From: Candidatus Uhrbacteria bacterium
Lineage (GTDB): Bacteria; Patescibacteriota; Patescibacteriia; UBA9934; GWF2-40-263
Length of the DNA: 64,000 bases
Direction of reading: 5' to 3'
Assembly (NCBI GenBank): GCA_013204385.1
Contig: JABMNY010000003.1
Location: 14,270 to 78,269, forward strand
Part shown: positions 10,899-61,725 of the stretch, one piece after another
Layout: each line of letters starts with the position of its first letter
How positions within the stretch are numbered: the first letter of the stretch is position 1
Position numbers and translations under genes: made by a program
Notes under the pieces: model-generated
Databases searched by the model: none
What the model was told of the DNA's origin: nothing
Seen by the model: only the letters and a program-made list of their open reading frames with translations

Positions 10899-11306
10899 TT
10901 ACTTGAGTGAAACAGCTCCACCAGCATCTTCGATCTGCTTCTTCATCTCTTCTGCTTGTTCTTTTGAAACACCTTCTTTTACCATTGTTGGCGCAGCGTC
11001 AACAATATCTTTTGCCTCTTTGAGTCCAAGACCTGTGATCGCTCGAACGGCCTTAATCACATTGATCTTGTTGTCTCCACAGCTTGTAAGCTCAACATCA
11101 AATGATGTTTGTTCTTCTGCAGCAGGTCCAGCAGCAGGTCCAGCAGCCATCATCATTGCTGGAGCAGACGCGCTCACACCAAACTTGTCTTCGAGAACTT
11201 TTACGAGATCTGCAAGGTCCAATACAGACATCTTTTCAACAGACTCTACAAGCGCTTTAAACTTTTCTGGCACCACAACTTCTTCCTTGGTTGTTTCTTC
11301 TGACAT
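10899..11306 (-). CDS. rplL: 50S ribosomal protein L7/L12
   Basis: 135 aa [11 protein letters not shown]...[19 protein letters not shown]...[17 protein letters not shown]. Confidence 0.95.
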
Positions 11307-11336
11307 AATTGATTGAATAAGTGAATAATATATTGA

Positions 11337-11465
11337 GAGACTTCTGAAAAAGTGATGGATTTTCGTTAAACGGGCTGCTGAGATCGTGAACCCTACTCAA
11401 ATGTAGGGAGAACGGAATCAGCGGGTGCCCGTGAGACGAAAAGACGCGCTTTTACAGAGGTCTCT
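11337..11465 (-). repeat. 129-nt element with ~10-15 nt terminal inverted repeats (copy A), filling rplJ-rplL intergenic space and abutting rplJ stop codon
   Basis: ~90% identical (as reverse complement) to 59843-59969; ends AGAGACYTCTG...CAGARGTCTC; internal hairpin CCCTAC-N6-GTAGGG. Confidence 0.6.
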
Positions 11466-11987
11466 TTACGCCTTTGCTTCTTTGATCGCACTAAGAACGT
11501 AAACGAATTTACGGAGATTTCCTGCAAGAACATTAACGAATCCAGAGATTGGTGCGTTGAGTGTTCCAACGAGCTGTCCAAGTAATTGTTCTCTGCTTGG
11601 TAAGGTTGCAAGTTGTTGAATGGCCTCTTTTGAGACAAACTGTCCCTCGAGAATTCCTCCAACAATGGAGATTGTGTCACGACCTTTTGAAAACTCAGCC
11701 ATGAGTTTTGCGGCTGCGACTTCATCATCGAACCCGAATGTGGTGAGAATACTGCCTTCCAAATCATCTCTTGTGATTGGGAATCCATTTTTCTCAAGCG
11801 CACGTACGAGAAGAGATTTTTTTGCGATGAGAAGTTCTACTCCAACGGAGCGACCTTTTTCACGCAGAGTGTTTGCATCTTCCATGGTATATCCAGCGAC
11901 GCTGGTAAACACCACAGATTTCATGCTTGTGAGCTTCTCCGCAAGCCCATCAACAATCTCTGACTTCTGTACACGTGTTTTTGGCAT
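11466..11987 (-). CDS. rplJ: 50S ribosomal protein L10
   Basis: 173 aa MPKTRVQKSEIVDGLAEKL... Confidence 0.95.
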   Translation of the reverse strand: MPKTRVQKSEIVDGLAEKLTSMKSVVFTSVAGYTMEDANTLREKGRSVGVELLIAKKSLLVRALEKNGFPITRDDLEGSILTTFGFDDEVAAAKLMAEFSKGRDTISIVGGILEGQFVSKEAIQQLATLPSREQLLGQLVGTLNAPISGFVNVLAGNLRKFVYVLSAIKEAKA

Positions 11988-12002
11988 AATTTGTTCGACC
12001 TT

Positions 12003-12140
12003 TAAAAATAAAAAACTACGGATTCACGCCGTAGAACAAGGTCGAAAAGACATCTTTTCGCTGTTCACCTCGACGAGACTTGTGGCACGTGCCTGCTCGT
12101 GGTCTACGGTAAATCTTCAGTTCGATAAGAGCATACAAGA
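12003..12140 (-). promoter_or_regulatory. rplJ promoter (TTGACA-N17-TATGCT) and structured leader with hairpin+U-tract attenuator immediately upstream of rplJ start
   Basis: On minus strand: ttgacacacatcccgtcttcttgtatgct; leader contains ggcacgtgcc palindrome and cuacggcgugaauccguag followed by UUUUUUAUUUUU just before the ATG. Confidence 0.4.
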
Positions 12141-22611: not shown

Positions 22612-23238
22612 TTATTGTGCGCGCTCTTCGACCGTAACGGTTGTCATGACATCTCCGACCATAATGGCATCCACGACATCCATTCCTTCAAGTACACGTC
22701 CAAAAATGGAGTAAGACTTTGGAAGTGGCACATCTCCTAACATGACAAAAAATTGCGAGCCATTTGTACTGGGTCCACGGTTTGCCATGGCGACAATTCC
22801 GCGCTCATACGTGTAATCATCTGTAAGCTCATCAGAGAATTCATAGCCTGGACCACCCGTCCCATTTCCAGCAGGATCTCCTCCTTGAATCACAAACCCC
22901 TCTTCACGTCGATGAAATTTCAGTCCAGTGTAGTATCCTCCTTCCGTTAAATATACAAAGTTAGAAACGGTCATTGGAGCCGTATCTGCAAAGAGTTCAA
23001 AAACGATATCTCCCTTTTCTGTTGAGATACGAATCTGTTTATTGGCAATCTGTTCTTCTGGAAGGGTTCCAGGAAAACTCCACGTTTGAGTTGATGTTTC
23101 GTCTTGCACAGAGTCTGGATAGCTAAAGGTGAGTGAAGATTCTTCTTGGGCAACTGGGGCACACCCAGCCCCCATTAACACGAGCGCGCTCAGAGAAATG
23201 AGTCCTAGATATTTCATAGAGTATATCCGCTGATCCAA
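22612..23238 (-). CDS. ppiB: Peptidyl-prolyl cis-trans isomerase, cyclophilin type, with signal/lipobox-like N-terminus
   Basis: FHRREEGFVIQGGDP...GIVAMANRGPSTNGSQFFVML cyclophilin signature. Confidence 0.9.
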   Translation of the reverse strand: MDQRIYSMKYLGLISLSALVLMGAGCAPVAQEESSLTFSYPDSVQDETSTQTWSFPGTLPEEQIANKQIRISTEKGDIVFELFADTAPMTVSNFVYLTEGGYYTGLKFHRREEGFVIQGGDPAGNGTGGPGYEFSDELTDDYTYERGIVAMANRGPSTNGSQFFVMLGDVPLPKSYSIFGRVLEGMDVVDAIMVGDVMTTVTVEERAQ

Positions 23239-23693
23239 TCTGTAAAACCACTCACAGAAAGAGATGGCATTTCGAAATTTCCGGGGAGTGCTGTTGAGAG
23301 CAAGAGACCAGAGAGAATCGCGATAGAGATAGAGAGGACTCCGATCAACTTATTTACCCCCATTGGCATGTGATCACAATTGCGACACGTTCCAAGAAAA
23401 ACGATTTTATGATGCACTTCTAATTTTGAACGAGATCCTGGTGCAGATTTTTCTATGATAGTCACTACAGGAACGGTCTCTTCTTCCACTTGAAATACCA
23501 GTTCAGGAGTTTTAGCTACGGGAGTTTTTTTTGCAACAGACTTTTTTGCAACAGGTTTCTTTTTTGCTCCTGCTTTTTTTGTTGTTGTTTTCTTGACGGC
23601 TGTTTTCTTTGAAACCGTTTTCTTTTTTGCAACAGGTTTCTTTACCTCCTTTGTGTTTGAAGCAGAGGAGGATGTTTTTGTTTTTGTTGGCAT
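23214..23693 (-). CDS. Lys/Ala/Pro-rich histone-H1-like N-terminal repeats fused to C-terminal TM helix
   Basis: KKPVAKKKTVSKKTAVKKTTTKKAGAKKKPVAKKSVAKK repeats; C-terminal LIGVLSISIAILSGLLL. Confidence 0.45.
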   Translation of the reverse strand: MPTKTKTSSSASNTKEVKKPVAKKKTVSKKTAVKKTTTKKAGAKKKPVAKKSVAKKTPVAKTPELVFQVEEETVPVVTIIEKSAPGSRSKLEVHHKIVFLGTCRNCDHMPMGVNKLIGVLSISIAILSGLLLSTALPGNFEMPSLSVSGFTDWISGYTL

Positions 23694-27302: not shown

Positions 27303-27917
27303 ATGCCACAACTCACAAAAAAACAGTCAGCTGTGCTCGCGTTCATTCGCACACACATTGAAGAGAACGGGTATGCCCCCTCCTACAGAGAAATCGCTGA
27401 CGCATTCGGACTCTCTTCCCCCGCAACCATTCATGGCCATGTCCAGTCTCTCGTTGAAAAAGGACTTATCGTAAATGGAGATGATGGTGAAGCACGTTCA
27501 ATTGAACTCGTTCAAGAAGCCGCATCAGGATCCTCTATCCTTCTCCCCTTCATCGGACTCATTACCGCAGGAGAACCAATAGAAGCTGTCCAAGATAATG
27601 AAACGATGGCTGTCCCTGTAGACTTTGTTCTCGATGGTGCCAACTCATTTGTCTTACGTGTAAAAGGACGCTCCATGATTGAAGACGGAATTCTTGATGG
27701 AGACTATGTTGTCATCGAACGTAATCCTTCCCCACGTAACGGAGAGGTTGTCGTCGCACTTCTGGACAATGCCTTTGCAACGCTCAAGCGTTTTTACCGA
27801 GAGACAAATCGTATTCGTCTTCAACCAGCCAACAGCTCAATGGATCCAATCTACGTCCAAGACTGCATTATCCAAGGGGTGGTCCGAGCCGTCATCAGAA
27901 AGTTCCAACCCATCTAA
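27303..27917 (+). CDS. lexA: LexA repressor
   Basis: N-terminal wHTH; C-terminal S24 peptidase with Ala-Gly cleavage site region and Ser...Lys dyad (VKGRSM...ATLKR). Confidence 0.9.
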   Translation: MPQLTKKQSAVLAFIRTHIEENGYAPSYREIADAFGLSSPATIHGHVQSLVEKGLIVNGDDGEARSIELVQEAASGSSILLPFIGLITAGEPIEAVQDNETMAVPVDFVLDGANSFVLRVKGRSMIEDGILDGDYVVIERNPSPRNGEVVVALLDNAFATLKRFYRETNRIRLQPANSSMDPIYVQDCIIQGVVRAVIRKFQPI

Positions 27918-28380
27918 TAATAACATCCAACCGTCCTTAGACTCGCGAAGCTAAGGACGGTCACCAGCTGACAATTTGAGATCCCATGATGAGACGCGTA
28001 AGGGATCACGCGTCTGACCGTGGGATTTTAGTTTGCCAATTTTCAGAATCATCGAGGCTAAAGGTCTCGCTACAATACGCGGTAACAGAGAAGACGTTAT
28101 TCTGCTTCGCTCAGAATCGTCACGCTCGTGAAACCCTCATTGTGGCCTGACCTTCATCCTTTGATGAACCTGATCCCTTAATTCACTTACTCTTTACGTT
28201 CTATGTCTACCGCCACTACACTACGCCACCACTCCAACACATTCGCCTTCCTTCCACGACAACGGGATCAACGTTTCATCAAGAGTCTTCGTGCGATCAA
28301 AATCCGAACGAGTCGCCGAAAAATCAGACAAGTCATTCGTCAAATGATCGACCACCGATCACTTAGCACCATCTAATCCT

Positions 28381-28629
28381 ATGCACGAAATGCTTAACGA
28401 TCCTATAGACGTCACTGTCGCATTCAAAGATAATCGCGTCTTTCCACGCACCATGAGATGGAACGAACGTGACTACAAAATCGAAACCGTAAACCTTGTG
28501 CATACCGCTCGCGAAGGTCAAAAACGTATATTCTATTTCTCTGTGTCAGACACAACAAATTATTTCAAACTCAAACTCGACCCAGAAATGCTCGAATGGC
28601 GATTAGTCGAACTCTATACAGATGGATAA
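28381..28629 (+). CDS. Hypothetical 82-aa protein in SOS neighbourhood
   Basis: ORF only; no motif recognised. Confidence 0.4.
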   Translation: MHEMLNDPIDVTVAFKDNRVFPRTMRWNERDYKIETVNLVHTAREGQKRIFYFSVSDTTNYFKLKLDPEMLEWRLVELYTDG

Positions 28630-28650
28630 GAAAAAAGCACCTGATAGGTG

Positions 28651-29133
28651 CTAGCTGAGCGTATGTTCGAAATGAATGTTCGAACCTTTGACGGGTCTGA
28701 ACCCAAGCTTCTCGTAGAGGATTCGTGCCCCCTCACGTTCCTCCTCGGAAACGAGCTTGAGCAGAGAGATCTTTGGACGCACCTCCCCTGCCTGTTCGAT
28801 CAAATGTTCCATGACAGCGCGACCAAGCCCGCGACCTTCTCCGCGAAACTCAGGGTGCACCAGAACATATTCAACGTCCCCAACCCCCTTGCGCCAGTCG
28901 TAGCTGATCTTGAGCAAAGCAACAGCAACAATCTGTCGCGCACCTTTCTCTCGAATAATGCTAATGCGCGTTCGATTTGGATCCATGAGACGCGCCTGAA
29001 ACAGCGCGTCTTTGTAGTCGAGTGGACCCGACCGAAGCAGATCTTGCCCATGCTCATTCAGGAACGTTATGCAGTCTCGATAATCCCAGAGTTGAGCTTT
29101 CGAGTGAACAAATCGTTCTGGATCAAATGCCAT
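28651..29133 (-). CDS. GNAT-family N-acetyltransferase
   Basis: Start at MAFDPERF with GGAGGTG RBS; VHPEFRGEGRGLGRAVMEHLIE acetyl-CoA motif A. Confidence 0.75.
   Translation of the reverse strand: MAFDPERFVHSKAQLWDYRDCITFLNEHGQDLLRSGPLDYKDALFQARLMDPNRTRISIIREKGARQIVAVALLKISYDWRKGVGDVEYVLVHPEFRGEGRGLGRAVMEHLIEQAGEVRPKISLLKLVSEEEREGARILYEKLGFRPVKGSNIHFEHTLS
29106..29118. promoter_or_regulatory. GAAC-N5-GTTC palindrome ~65 nt upstream of dinB start: candidate Cheo-like SOS box
   Basis: gaacaaatcgttc. Confidence 0.35.
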
Positions 29134-29182
29134 GAGACACCTCCGTATACAAACCCTAACATTCCAGAGCACATCGTCAACT

Positions 29183-30388
29183 ATGCATCGCATCATCCTT
29201 CACATTGACATGAACTCGTACTTTGCCTCTGTAGAGCAACAGGCGAACCCTTTTTTGCGTGGAAAACCGATTGGGATTACAGGAAAAGACCAAGAGCGCT
29301 CCGTCGTCGCAACCGCCTCTATTGAAGCTAAGAAACTTGGGGTGAAGACCGCTATGTCTACCTGGGAAGCAAAGAAGATTTGCCCTTCACTTATTCTCTA
29401 TGCCGGCGACCCAGAAAAGTACTCAGACATCATGCATCGCTTCAACGCAATTTACCAGGAGTTCACTCCACATGTGGAACCATTCAGTGTAGATGAAAGT
29501 TTTTTAGATATAACAGAAGAGGCGGAAGATTTTTTTGGAGCGACGTATATGGCTCAAATGATCCGTACACGTCTTAAAGAAGAACTCGGGAATCACATCA
29601 CCGCCTCCATCGGTATTGCCCCAAACAAACTCATGGCAAAGCTTGCGTGTGAGACTGTGAAACCAAGTGGACTCACTGTTGTTCAACCAGAAGAACTTAT
29701 CGACTTGTTGAACCGTTGTAAACTTGATGACCTCTGCGGAATCGGTCCCCGTATTCTTAAACGTTTACACGCACTTGATATTAAAACATTCGCAGAACTA
29801 CGTGCATGCCCACTTGAGGATCTTCAACGTGAATTTAAGAGCTACGGTCTTTGGCTTCACGAAGCCGCTTACGGACGAGACTCTTCACAAGGAGTGAATG
29901 CGAATTCTTCAGACGCAAAATCTTACGGACATTCCTATACACTGCCAGAGAATACTCAAGATCAAACAGTACTCAAACGTTATCTCTTTGGACTCGCCGA
30001 CAAAGTTGGTTGGCGCATGCGTCGAGATGGAGTTGTTGCGCGTCGCATTACCGCCCATGTGCGGTTTGGAGATTTTACAAGTCATAGTGAACAACGAACG
30101 GTGAATACTCCAACAGCAGACGGCATGGATCTTTTTAAAATTTCCTGGAACATCGTAAAACCCCTACTCACAAGCGATGTACGTCTTGTCGGTCTCTCCG
30201 CCTCTATGCTTACAAAAAATCCTAGCCAACCGTCCCTATTCAAAAAAGAACGGAACATGCAGTCCGTCCTATGTGCGCTCGATTCTCTCCAACACCGCTA
30301 TGGCACAGGTGTCTGGAAACGAGGTGCAACACTCCCCCTCAACCTCAAACAACGCTCAAGCGGCTTCCATTTTGATCATGAAGTGTAG
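29183..30388 (+). CDS. dinB: DNA polymerase IV (Y-family)
   Basis: Start at MHRIILHIDMNSYFASVEQ; SVDESFLD catalytic motif. Confidence 0.9.
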   Translation: MHRIILHIDMNSYFASVEQQANPFLRGKPIGITGKDQERSVVATASIEAKKLGVKTAMSTWEAKKICPSLILYAGDPEKYSDIMHRFNAIYQEFTPHVEPFSVDESFLDITEEAEDFFGATYMAQMIRTRLKEELGNHITASIGIAPNKLMAKLACETVKPSGLTVVQPEELIDLLNRCKLDDLCGIGPRILKRLHALDIKTFAELRACPLEDLQREFKSYGLWLHEAAYGRDSSQGVNANSSDAKSYGHSYTLPENTQDQTVLKRYLFGLADKVGWRMRRDGVVARRITAHVRFGDFTSHSEQRTVNTPTADGMDLFKISWNIVKPLLTSDVRLVGLSASMLTKNPSQPSLFKKERNMQSVLCALDSLQHRYGTGVWKRGATLPLNLKQRSSGFHFDHEV

Positions 30389-30542
30389 AGAGTGAACTTA
30401 AGAAGTTCCTCTTCTTAAGTTCCGAACGAAGCGAAGTGATCTGTTCTACAGATCATGAAGTGTAGTGAGCGAGTTCATAAAGTTCCTCTTTATGAATTCC
30501 GAACGGAACGCCATGACTTGTTCTACAGATCATGAACTCTAG
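30374..30542. repeat. 2.2 tandem copies of a 77-bp unit beginning with the last 5 codons+stop of dinB (gatcatgaagtgtag), each unit carrying a 12-bp-stem hairpin with conserved TTCCTC loop
   Basis: Units at 30374, 30451, partial at 30528; stems gaacttaagaag/cttcttaagttc vs gagttcataaag/ctttatgaattc differ but stay complementary. Confidence 0.7.
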
Positions 30543-35255: not shown

Positions 35256-35336
35256 TGACTGCACACTCCCAGCGACCAACGGCAACCTGCCCACCTTAGC
35301 TTTTCGAGCAACGGTGGGTTTTTTCTTTTTCAAAAA
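35256..35336 (+). terminator. Tandem hairpins + U-tract terminator module (ACCTGCCCACC..AGCT.TTCGAGC.ACGGTGGGTTTT) plus duplicated dcd-leader-like segment ending in ATG
   Basis: ~70 nt similar to 61650-61746. Confidence 0.55.
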
Positions 35337-58834: not shown

Positions 58835-59338
58835 ATGCCTCCTCGTCGCATTCTTGAAATTGGACCAGGACCCAGTCCTCTCCATCATCGAGGAATAGAA
58901 AACTCCCTGCAACTAAAGGACAATGAAGAGTATCACGGCATTGACTCACACGAAGGAATGTCTGAAAGAACCGTCTGGAAGCAAGCAAAGGAAGAATATG
59001 GAGATCGTGTGTTTCTGTATCAAGGGGATCGCACTGACCTCCATCAAATTGCAAACAACAGCATGGACGAACTTGTCGCTCTAGGAACCTATGGTCGAAA
59101 CGGAAAAGCCGTTCGCGAGTTTGATCGTGTTCTTAAAGAAGGTGGAAAACTTCTGTTGGGAACCAACACATCAAATGAACAGGCACTTCGTGAATCTTGG
59201 GGAGCCCGTCTTGAGCGACGTGGGTATCAAGAACTTCCCTCCAAAACAAAGCGATATACCCATAAAGGAAATACTTCTGCTGAATCTCCTTTTATCGTCC
59301 TGGTTTGGCAAAAAGGCTATTCTGAGGAATCGCATTGA
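58835..59338 (+). CDS. Small class I SAM-dependent methyltransferase inserted between nusG and rplK
   Basis: motif I ILEIGPGPSP. Confidence 0.55.
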   Translation: MPPRRILEIGPGPSPLHHRGIENSLQLKDNEEYHGIDSHEGMSERTVWKQAKEEYGDRVFLYQGDRTDLHQIANNSMDELVALGTYGRNGKAVREFDRVLKEGGKLLLGTNTSNEQALRESWGARLERRGYQELPSKTKRYTHKGNTSAESPFIVLVWQKGYSEESH

Positions 59339-59419: not shown

Positions 59420-59842
59420 ATGGCAAAAAAACTTGTTACTCAAATCAAATTGCAGGTTCCAGGTGGAGCAGCAACTCCAGCCCCTCCAATTGGACCAGCG
59501 CTTGGACAGCATGGTCTCCCTATTCAAGAGTTCGTTGTTCGTTTTAACAACGACACACAAGATCGACGTGGAGAAATTGTTCCAGTGGTCATCTCTGTGT
59601 ACGACGATCGAACATTCGACTTCATTTTAAAGACTGCCCCGGCGTCTGACATGATTTTGAAAGCAGCGGGCATCAAAAAAGGATCAGGAAATCCTTTGAC
59701 GACAAAAGTTGGATCTATCACCCAGGCGCAACTCAAAGAAATCGCAGAGAAGAAAATGCCTGACCTCAATACAAATGACACAGAAGCTGCCATGAAAATC
59801 ATTGCAGGGACCTGTCGTCAGATGGGAGTCGAAATCAAGTAG
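59420..59842 (+). CDS. rplK: 50S ribosomal protein L11
   Basis: [29 protein letters not shown]. Confidence 0.95.
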
Positions 59843-59969
59843 AGACCTCTACAAAAGCGCGTCTTTTCGTCTCACGGGCACCCGCTGACCCCGTTCTCCC
59901 TACGTTTTAGTAGGGTTCTCGGTTTCAGCAGCCCGTTCAACGAAAATCCATCACTTTTTCAGAGGTCTC
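59843..59969 (+). repeat. 129-nt terminal-inverted-repeat element (copy B) between rplK stop and rplA
   Basis: agagacctctacaaaag...ctttttcagaggtctc; ~90% identical to reverse complement of 11337-11465. Confidence 0.6.
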
Positions 59970-60036
59970 GTAAGTCTAATCATTCATTACTGTGGGAGGT
60001 GTGAGATACTCTCAGACCGACCGAACCACTACCTGT

Positions 60037-61649: not shown

Positions 61650-61725
61650 CTGCCCCGTTCCAAACACGGGGACCTGCCCACCAAAGCTCTTCGAGCGACG
61701 GTGGGTTTTATTATTTTCAAATCTG
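61650..61725 (+). terminator. Tandem hairpins + U-tract terminator module (copy of 35256-35336)
   Basis: ccccgttccaaacacgggg; cccaccaaagctcttcgagcgacggtggg + TTTTATTATTTT. Confidence 0.55.

Follow-up and report, generated by a model that had tools for sequence, protein, structure and literature searches.

The closest described systems for the element reported here are the ERIC sequences, the Correia elements, the REPINs and the REP sequences of E. coli. Correia elements have 26-bp terminal inverted repeats, a strict TA duplication, an IHF site and outward promoters, while REPINs are usually very numerous and are inherited vertically with their RAYT. REP sequences within ~15 nt of a stop codon stall terminating ribosomes in E. 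coli, and REP also stabilises upstream mRNA. [quoted passage not shown] ERIC sequences sit at 3′ gene ends and are reported to affect host transcript stability; the Correia/NEMIS element of Neisseria is a co-transcribed MITE of 204 bp whose ends form an RNA hairpin that is an RNase III substrate, with sites that vary between strains; and known MITEs insert into one another (PMC10969869). In published descriptions, REPINs are hairpins whose spacer shows compensatory changes (PMC3116915), and RNase R and PNPase are reported to act on REP-containing mRNAs (PMC12320835).

We analysed a stretch of 64,000 nt of Candidatus Uhrbacteria DNA (the window), an affiliation to which its L10 protein also points, in which two copies of a palindromic element, A and B, lie between ribosomal protein genes (Table 1). 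Over 129 nt the two share 91.5% identity (blastn E 1e-44). No third copy was detected in the window by blastn, nhmmer or two covariance models, and a 19-mer search of the same 64 kb, in which 0.02 chance matches are expected, turned up no further terminal-repeat-like 19-mer when up to 3 mismatches to the left end of copy B were allowed. The covariance-model match for copy B (156 bits with model R1, 141 bits with R2) and the 129-nt string originally quoted for it both span 59841-59969 (+), one base earlier than the GAGACC...GGTCTC form in the table. The original prediction had let the element begin at 59843, the first base after the rplK stop, a placement that we correct: the string starts at 59841 and overlaps the last two bases of the TAG (59840-59842), whose third base is the first G of the GAGACC... 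form. Other parts of that description hold, including a perfect 9-bp terminal inverted repeat, GAGACCTCT and AGAGGTCTC being fully complementary. Both copies stand just 3′ of a ribosomal protein stop and, as had been proposed, some 30-70 nt before the next start: the 159-nt rplJ-rplL spacer has copy A immediately after the rplJ TAA and another 30 nt up to the rplL ATG, and in the 194-nt rplK-rplA spacer 67 nt separate copy B from the rplA ATG (60037). The two loci are indeed separated pieces of the ancestral rplKAJL operon, with rplKA at 59.4-60.7 kb (+) and rplJL at 10.9-12.0 kb (-).

Table 1. Features of the window and of related loci (positions without a locus name refer to the window; L-numbers denote fetched loci)
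Feature	Position	Strand	Basis or remark
Copy B, palindromic element	59842..59969	+	128 nt, taken as GAGACC...GGTCTC
Copy B left terminal inverted repeat, GAGACCTCT	59842..59850	+	pairs perfectly with 59961-59969 (sequence, fold)
Copy B right terminal inverted repeat, AGAGGTCTC	59961..59969	+	sequence, fold
GTA direct repeat, left copy	59839..59841	+	putative target-site duplication (sequence)
GTA direct repeat, right copy	59970..59972	+	with next A, putative displaced ancestral TAA (sequence)
rplK (L11), 140 aa	59420..59842	+	ORF; Pfam Ribosomal_L11_N/L11 on identical product
rplA (L1), 227 aa	60037..60720	+	ORF; Pfam Ribosomal_L1; MPSKRF start common to relatives
GTGGGAG...GAC...ACCAC hairpin, putative L1-binding leader	59992..60030	+	outside the element, its downstream neighbour
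Copy A of element	11337..11465	-	between rplJ stop and rplL; covariance models 148/134 bits
rplJ (L10)	11466..11987	-	TAA stop 11466-11468; ORF; Pfam Ribosomal_L10
rplL (L7/L12)	10899..11306	-	ORF; Pfam Ribosomal_L12 on orthologues
TCAA beside copy A right end	11333..11336	-	possible decayed copy of TAAA 11465-11468, 3/4 bases match; weak
Element end sequence, GAGACCTCTGCAAAAG			with variants among copies
Copy C	L049 7539-7667, also L163		last codons of recJ, before rnhA; opposite orientation relative to transcription; found by two-arm pattern
L083, L084, L089 copies			at rplK stop
L097_1 copy			at nusG stop, reversed
L097_2 copy			4 nt after rplA stop
L107, L109 copies			6 nt before rplK ATG
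L164 copy			11 nt before rplJ ATG
L114 copy			between gyrB and putative secE
L131 copy			25 nt upstream of putative dCMP-deaminase/thymidylate-synthase-like gene, assigned by eye
L166_1 copy			directly after TAA of uncharacterised gene
L166_2 copy			15 nt after recJ stop
CCGTGACACGTCGTTCGCGAACGACGTGTCACGG palindrome	L082 2903-2945; L091 999-1026, 2350-2380; L087 1567-1599; L113 3296-3320; L083 2315-2348		

Copies A and B each fold into a single long imperfect rod hairpin, as does every family member tested. The predicted stability is -57.0 kcal/mol for copy B (z -9.2) and -50.2 kcal/mol for copy A (z -7.2), with none of 200 shuffles as stable in either case. The 11 differences between them fall mainly in loops and in the inner right arm, in keeping with the initial description of changes clustered in loops and one arm. 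In a MAFFT alignment of 6 sequences, 95% of cells are paired and 17 of 41 pairs show compensatory change (21 cells changed on both sides, 2 on one side); none of 500 shuffles reached the observed pattern, and sliding the partners left 36-49% paired. The 12-sequence alignment, which was fitted to a covariance model and therefore leans towards structure, gave 90% of cells paired, compensatory change in 29 of 41 pairs, and 92 cells changed on both sides against about 15 on one side (0/500 shuffles; 33-48% paired after sliding). Size and coding content are those of a MITE (50-800 bp): members measure 123-131 nt, or 160 and 193 nt with nested inserts, and contain no open reading frame of 50 aa or more. 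Terminal inverted repeats, likewise a MITE character, are present as ends that pair in 12 of 12 aligned members, with covariation at 14 of 14 outer-helix pairs. MITE terminal repeats are often quoted as 10-15 bp, a length that copy B's 9 bp fall short of unless the next, interrupted helix is counted (PMC11602168).

The rod is nevertheless not symmetrical: a conserved asymmetric internal loop (5′ GYGATCT-like, 3′ ATCYCATC) gives the element a polarity, and conserved mismatches read as A.C on one strand and as G.T-compatible on the other. The antisense strand is the better folder, at -71 and -74 kcal/mol for A and B versus -50 and -57 kcal/mol in the mRNA sense; for A, B and most copies beside ribosomal protein genes, the antisense has 5-6 more G.U pairs and is 17-21 kcal/mol more stable. 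The subfamily ends (GAGACCTCTG, GGGACCTCTG, AAGATCTTTC, GAGGACTTTC and AAAACTTATT) look like diverged versions of one end, and they differ even within what appears to be a single lineage (L083, L164, L166).

Rfam 15 gave no match at gathering threshold anywhere in the window, and a search at E <= 10 around the element returned only sub-threshold matches with E above 2. blastn of the element found nothing in PLSDB plasmids or in 5,426 complete E. coli genomes, which carry ERIC and REP, and an exact 21-mer from its core was absent from 185,579 species genomes. A scan for promoter and terminator consensus sequences detected nothing inside the element, and an intrinsic terminator was rejected; no U-tract follows the stem.

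The window holds further small repeats and other features of separate interest. Two 56-nt terminator-like copies at 35279-35334 and 61666-61721 (84% identical; CCCACC...GGTGGG and then a run of T) possibly represent a further small dispersed repeat, and two tandem 77-nt units at 30374-30527 (77% identical), each with an internal palindrome, lie just downstream of a Y-family polymerase gene. That gene has a lexA-like repressor gene ~1.2 kb upstream (27303-30388), making a compact SOS-type pair of lexA-like and ImpB/DinB-type genes in a reduced genome. A low-complexity Lys/Ala-rich ORF at 23214-23693 (-) has a weak histone H1-like (HC2) match and overlaps a repeat family of 15-nt period, D1. Between nusG and rplK, a 167-aa ORF without a Pfam domain (58835-59338; also in L002-L004) interrupts the usual secE-nusG-rplK order. 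A tRNA/tmRNA scan of the 64 kb found none; positions 1-64000 hold no tRNA gene and no Rfam family at gathering, yet seven ribosomal protein genes, tsf, gyrB and glycolysis genes.

L1 autoregulation is established and is the source of the role that we propose for the hairpin following copy B. By analogy, this hairpin looks like an L1-binding mRNA mimic, standing before rplA instead of before rplK. It had no Rfam match, and it occurs in every Uhrbacteria rplK-rplA spacer examined (L081-L100), with or without the element; when copy B was folded together with its flanks, its own hairpin formed independently of the leader hairpin. At least six spacers carry unrelated long palindromes between the rplK stop and the L1 leader (L082 at 2903-2945, L088, L091, L095, L099 and L100), several of them made of the short motifs GGTAG/GGTGG, CAAGGG and GTTGAA. 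A second palindrome, short (~34 nt) and REP-like, CCGTGACACGTCGTTCGCGAACGACGTGTCACGG, recurs in five Uhrbacteria genomes. The rplJ leader (window 11988-12120 (-); L164 9700-9860), which reads ...CTACGGCGT.AATCCGTAG..., is well kept between distant Uhrbacteria; a TTGACA-type promoter and an upstream terminator precede it, and it had no match to an Rfam L10 leader.

We then searched more widely with R1 and R2, both built from copies of the element and run over ~600 kb of Uhrbacteria-clade loci around rplA, rplJ and recJ. The family comprises 15 members at 11 distinct insertion sites in ~10 sampled Uhrbacteria-clade lineages, with homologues in NCBI, ENA and JGI assemblies of lineages other than that of the window; the broader second model, run over 557 kb of these loci, added none. 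Because the search space had rplA and rplJ at its centre, part of the enrichment beside these genes is ascertainment. The source genome has two documented copies in the ~83 kb of it that were searched. Copy C came from a two-arm pattern that matched 66 loci in JGI metagenome contigs, of which L049 alone proved a true copy. The same relaxed pattern had one match in viral contigs, which we attribute to chance, and weak 31-nt nhmmer matches in L023, L042, L054, L075 and L076 were dismissed as belonging to a high-GC unrelated genome.

The element tends to land at gene ends: 8 of the 15 lie against a stop codon or overlap it (0-4 nt). Three junctions, rplK-rplA, recJ-rnhA and nusG-rplK, have been occupied repeatedly, and the exact position differs slightly in at least one of them; recJ-rnhA was struck twice at different positions. 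Both orientations relative to the flanking genes occur, one in about seven independent events and the opposite one in three to five. L166, the only region of an element-rich lineage that was sampled at a distance from ribosomal protein genes, has two copies. The GWF2-like lineage has four within ~49 kb of sampled sequence and is therefore probably rich in the family. Hairpins nested in the right arms of the copies at L097 1883-2042 (~30 nt) and L084 2745-2937 (~63 nt) indicate that palindromes insert into palindromes. The sequence AGAAACAAGG adjoins, on the outside, one end of a copy in each of two genomes, at loci that are unrelated (L097 2043-2065 and L166 17647-17660). In L166 the letters after it, AGGTCTCT, are similar to an element end, and this may be a remnant of an adjacent copy or a longer form of the element.

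Comparison with close relatives revealed empty orthologous sites. The closest have L10, L11 and L1 proteins ~91-92% identical to those of the window organism. Seven contigs of the 91%-identical lineage have an element-free rplJ-rplL spacer of 27 nt (33 nt for L013), and the spacer is likewise free of the element in L012, a 77% relative, with 17 nt, and in L164/GW2011_GWF2_39_13, with 27 nt; judged from gene positions only, it is also 17 nt in the P0020 contig. The site of copy A is empty in six related lineages. The nearest relative for rplK-rplA, Uhrbacteria CG10_48_16 (L081, L1 91%), has a spacer of 52 nt that likewise lacks the element. Since the relatives' orthologous spacers are without it, copies A and B are insertions, or copies lost elsewhere, on the scale of one genus-level lineage. 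At recJ-rnhA the situation appears to be reversed. The two genes are 3 nt apart, without the element, in L161/L162, contigs of the sequencing runs that also yielded the window organism, and a 139-nt spacer with copy C occurs in L049/L163, which belong to the sample and study series of the 91% relative. With L161 assigned to the window organism and L049 to that relative by shared samples rather than physical linkage, the relative probably carries copy C and the window organism's probable contig is empty there; if these assignments are right, sister lineages hold the element at mutually exclusive sites. The window also has the empty counterpart (aaaggtcgaac/aaattATG, slash at the insertion point) of the L164 insertion upstream of rplJ, and empty orthologous sites exist for the A, B, C and L164 copies. 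The original prediction had taken absence from close relatives, together with presence elsewhere, as the pattern that would count against it, and this is largely what we observed, with both sites empty and copies beside unrelated genes.

Several copies are flanked by exact direct repeats: GTA at copy B, AACA at copy C, TTC at L131 and TAAAT at L166_2. At copy A the flanks, TAAA and TCAA, match at three of four bases, and the 30 nt that follow the element compare with a 27-nt spacer in relatives, with 3-4 extra nucleotides adjoining it. At L097_1, L097_2, L164 and the L083 group, repeats are either missing or hard to make out; in the L083 group the palindrome runs through the last base of a Lys codon and the TAA (GTAAAAC...GTTTTAC). 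The pattern is suggestive of a 3-5-bp target-site duplication but is not uniform. A strict TA duplication of IS630/Correia type, suggested by the L083 group (TA/AAAC...GTTT/TA), was rejected for B and C. As a lead only, we name the IS5 family (IS1031/IS427) as a candidate origin, a family with 'GAG' ends and 2-4-bp duplications.

Taking out the inserts restores plausible ancestral junctions. Without copy B and one GTA, the sequence reads ATC AAG TAA GTC..., with the TAA at the same codon as in relatives and a spacer to the L1 leader of 18 nt, versus 16-17 nt in relatives with empty sites; the present rplK TAG consists of TA from the target and G from copy B. Without copy C and one AACA, the junction reads ...CAA CAC GCA TAA TTTT ATG, giving an ORF as long as that of the empty relative (...CAA TTG TTA TAA TAT ATG). 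From this equal length, copy C would have landed two codons inside recJ, whose stop is now supplied by the element's own end (G-TGA-CC).

Copies in distant hosts are far more alike than the genes of those hosts. Copy B is 91% identical to copy C and 90% identical to L097_1, whose host L1 protein is only 69% identical to that of the window, while the identity in coding DNA between the window and its nearest relative is 82-86%, and 58-69% at third positions. The copy at the same locus in L083, at 73%, is less similar to B than these copies from other loci in other hosts (90%). This pattern fits recent movement, including between lineages, and not vertical inheritance of a fixed operon feature. 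Two orthologous pairs, for their part, diverge more slowly than expected from synonymous sites: L083 and L084 are 88% identical, against 68-70% at third positions, and L107 and L109 78%, against 47-53%.

Could the element be something other than a MITE? Its source is a metagenome assembly, in which repeats can be misjoined, and short-read contigs of the same organism do break around it: L002 and L005 stop 42 nt into the element and L004 stops 22 nt beyond the rplK TAG, the behaviour expected if a repeat interrupts the assembly graph. Nevertheless, two independent JGI assemblies (L001 and L003) agree on the rplK-element-rplA join, identical L11 and L10 products are encoded by an 89.6-kb JGI contig (3300032736) as well as by short-read Logan contigs, and Logan contigs enter the element from both genes. 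Together with the homologues in other lineages' assemblies, and with similarity and fold statistics that exclude a chance palindrome, this makes an artefact or accident of sequence a practically negligible prospect. An unlikely reading is a REPIN-like element moved as single-stranded DNA by a tyrosine transposase (HUH/RAYT or IS200/IS605-type), with the whole hairpin as substrate and one active strand. The full-length palindrome with its compensatory changes, the asymmetric loop that defines a strand, the strand-specific mismatches, the nested small hairpins and the several copies that lack direct repeats would all suit it. IS200-type insertion, however, yields no direct repeats, and exact repeats of 3-5 bp stand on either side of B, C, L131 and L166_2; a REP unit of 20-40 nt with a conserved head was not seen; and no transposase, integrase or Y1 transposase was found in the window (Pfam on 40 ORFs, precomputed domains for the rest), no RAYT in the 64 kb, and neither a Y1 nor any cognate transposase in the gene lists of the fetched loci (L001-L013, L161-L167).

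The element might instead be a host cis-acting RNA of ribosomal protein operons, original or exapted, that insulates the L1/L12 control region, blocks 3′-5′ decay or serves as an RNase III site. Family members occupy rplK-rplA in the window, L083, L084 and L089, the same junction carries the unrelated long hairpins of at least six other loci, and further copies lie at nusG-rplK, after rplA and before rplJ. Both window copies follow ribosomal protein genes, which make up 7 of ~68 genes (a post hoc figure of ~0.01), the covariation is strong, orthologous copies diverge more slowly than synonymous sites, and the hairpin folds without disturbing the L1 leader. Against this stand the empty sites in nearest relatives with otherwise the same operons, the copies at recJ-rnhA and beside unrelated genes, the occurrence of both orientations, and the closer kinship of B to other-locus copies in distant hosts than to the same-locus copy in L083; the search space explains part of the enrichment. 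That the sense transcript is the weaker-folding strand of A, B and most copies beside ribosomal protein genes argues against tuning for mRNA. We therefore regard a host RNA as improbable, and the element as probably not a dedicated regulator of ribosomal operons. It is rather unlikely, too, that the secE-nusG-rplKA and rplJL copies were co-opted as RNA hairpins, as RNase III or exonuclease-stop sites or as insulators, that uncouple the upstream cistron from the L1- or L10-controlled one. Such co-option would explain both the hairpins at rplK-rplA in many lineages and the slower-than-synonymous divergence of orthologous copies and, if true, would amount to a lineage-specific layer of ribosomal gene regulation, which the present evidence does not require. 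If real, a previously undescribed hairpin-dependent way of transposing in the Candidate Phyla Radiation would be a second, independent novelty.

We favour, with a probability of about 0.68, the reading that A and B are resident copies of a non-autonomous palindromic MITE of ~125-130 bp, of ERIC/Correia type, that has spread within Candidatus Uhrbacteria. This reading rests on the multiple copies, the empty orthologous sites alongside other sites elsewhere, both orientations, the terminal inverted repeats, the direct repeats and the cross-host similarity. The original prediction had offered function or a strong insertion-site preference; preference is supported by the copies at stop codons and the repeated junctions, whereas function tied to rplKAJL is disfavoured by the empty relatives, the unrelated genes and the two orientations.

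In mechanistic terms, a transposase acting in trans would move the element through a short staggered cut with 3-5-bp duplication at A/T-rich, TA-containing targets. Stop codons (TAA/TAG) would offer such targets, and in compact genomes only insertions at gene ends would survive. At rplK, insertion into AAG/TAA would have duplicated GTA, with the element's first G making the new TAG and the old TAA moved to the far side. Copy B would then be co-transcribed with rplK-rplA as a self-contained hairpin of ~42 bp, leaving the L1 leader and the rplA start intact. The compensatory changes may reflect selection for an insert that stays folded away, perhaps together with side effects like a 3′ exonuclease block or an RNase III site. 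With spacers of 3-50 nt, an insertion would survive only at a gene end and while folded clear of a neighbouring start or leader, and survival on those terms would by itself select compensatory changes.

Some observations sit less easily with a MITE. Besides the lack of a transposase in the window and the fetched gene lists, no larger element sharing these ends was found, the flanking repeats vary between 3 and 5 bp and are absent or unclear at some copies, the terminal sequences differ between subfamilies, and the source genome has yielded only two copies in the part searched. The host assignments of L161 and L049 rest on shared samples, and the slow divergence of L083/L084 and L107/L109, like the repeated occupation of the same junctions, also fits host-level selection.

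A repeat that lands at stop codons, and sometimes itself supplies the new stop, suggests how mobile DNA can persist in tiny, gene-dense genomes under extreme streamlining. The element also has a practical consequence, as it breaks short-read assemblies at ribosomal protein genes that serve as phylogenetic and binning markers; the covariance model from this analysis could flag such breaks.

The family has not been described before, and lies outside ERIC, Correia and REPIN by sequence or by host. ERIC, also called IRU, is an imperfect palindrome of ~127 bp, against 129 bp here, and both are palindromic over their full length. ERIC too occupies transcribed intergenic spacers and 3′ gene ends in either orientation, has larger variants that arose by internal insertions, as in L097_1 and L084, and differs in copy number and sites between close relatives. 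The two share no sequence similarity (0 blastn matches in 5,426 E. coli genomes) and differ in host, Enterobacteriaceae and Vibrionaceae for ERIC and the phylum Patescibacteria here, so that the Uhrbacteria element is ERIC-like in its working and not a member; several Uhrbacteria copies, moreover, have 3-5-bp flanking repeats. As we know of no mode of transposition for ERIC, the mechanisms cannot be compared. With Correia the element shares the build of a MITE of ~100-200 bp with terminal inverted repeats, presumably co-transcribed with its neighbours, whereas its duplications are 3-5 bp and variable and it contains no promoter-like site. REPIN/RAYT systems resemble it as extragenic hairpins of ~100 nt with two inverted arms and compensatory stem changes that cluster and nest (PMC3116915); they differ in that no REP core or RAYT was found for the Uhrbacteria element (no RAYT in 64 kb), that direct repeats flank several copies and that copies in distant hosts are 90% identical. 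E. coli REP sequences after stop codons are alike by position only, as stable hairpins 0-4 nt past a stop inside an operon; by analogy, a terminating ribosome would have to open the hairpin base, and the hairpin could block 3′ exonucleases. REP, however, measures 35-40 nt against ~129 nt. Judged by these analogies, the element appears closest in form and behaviour to ERIC and Correia, and in the evolution of its hairpin to REPINs.
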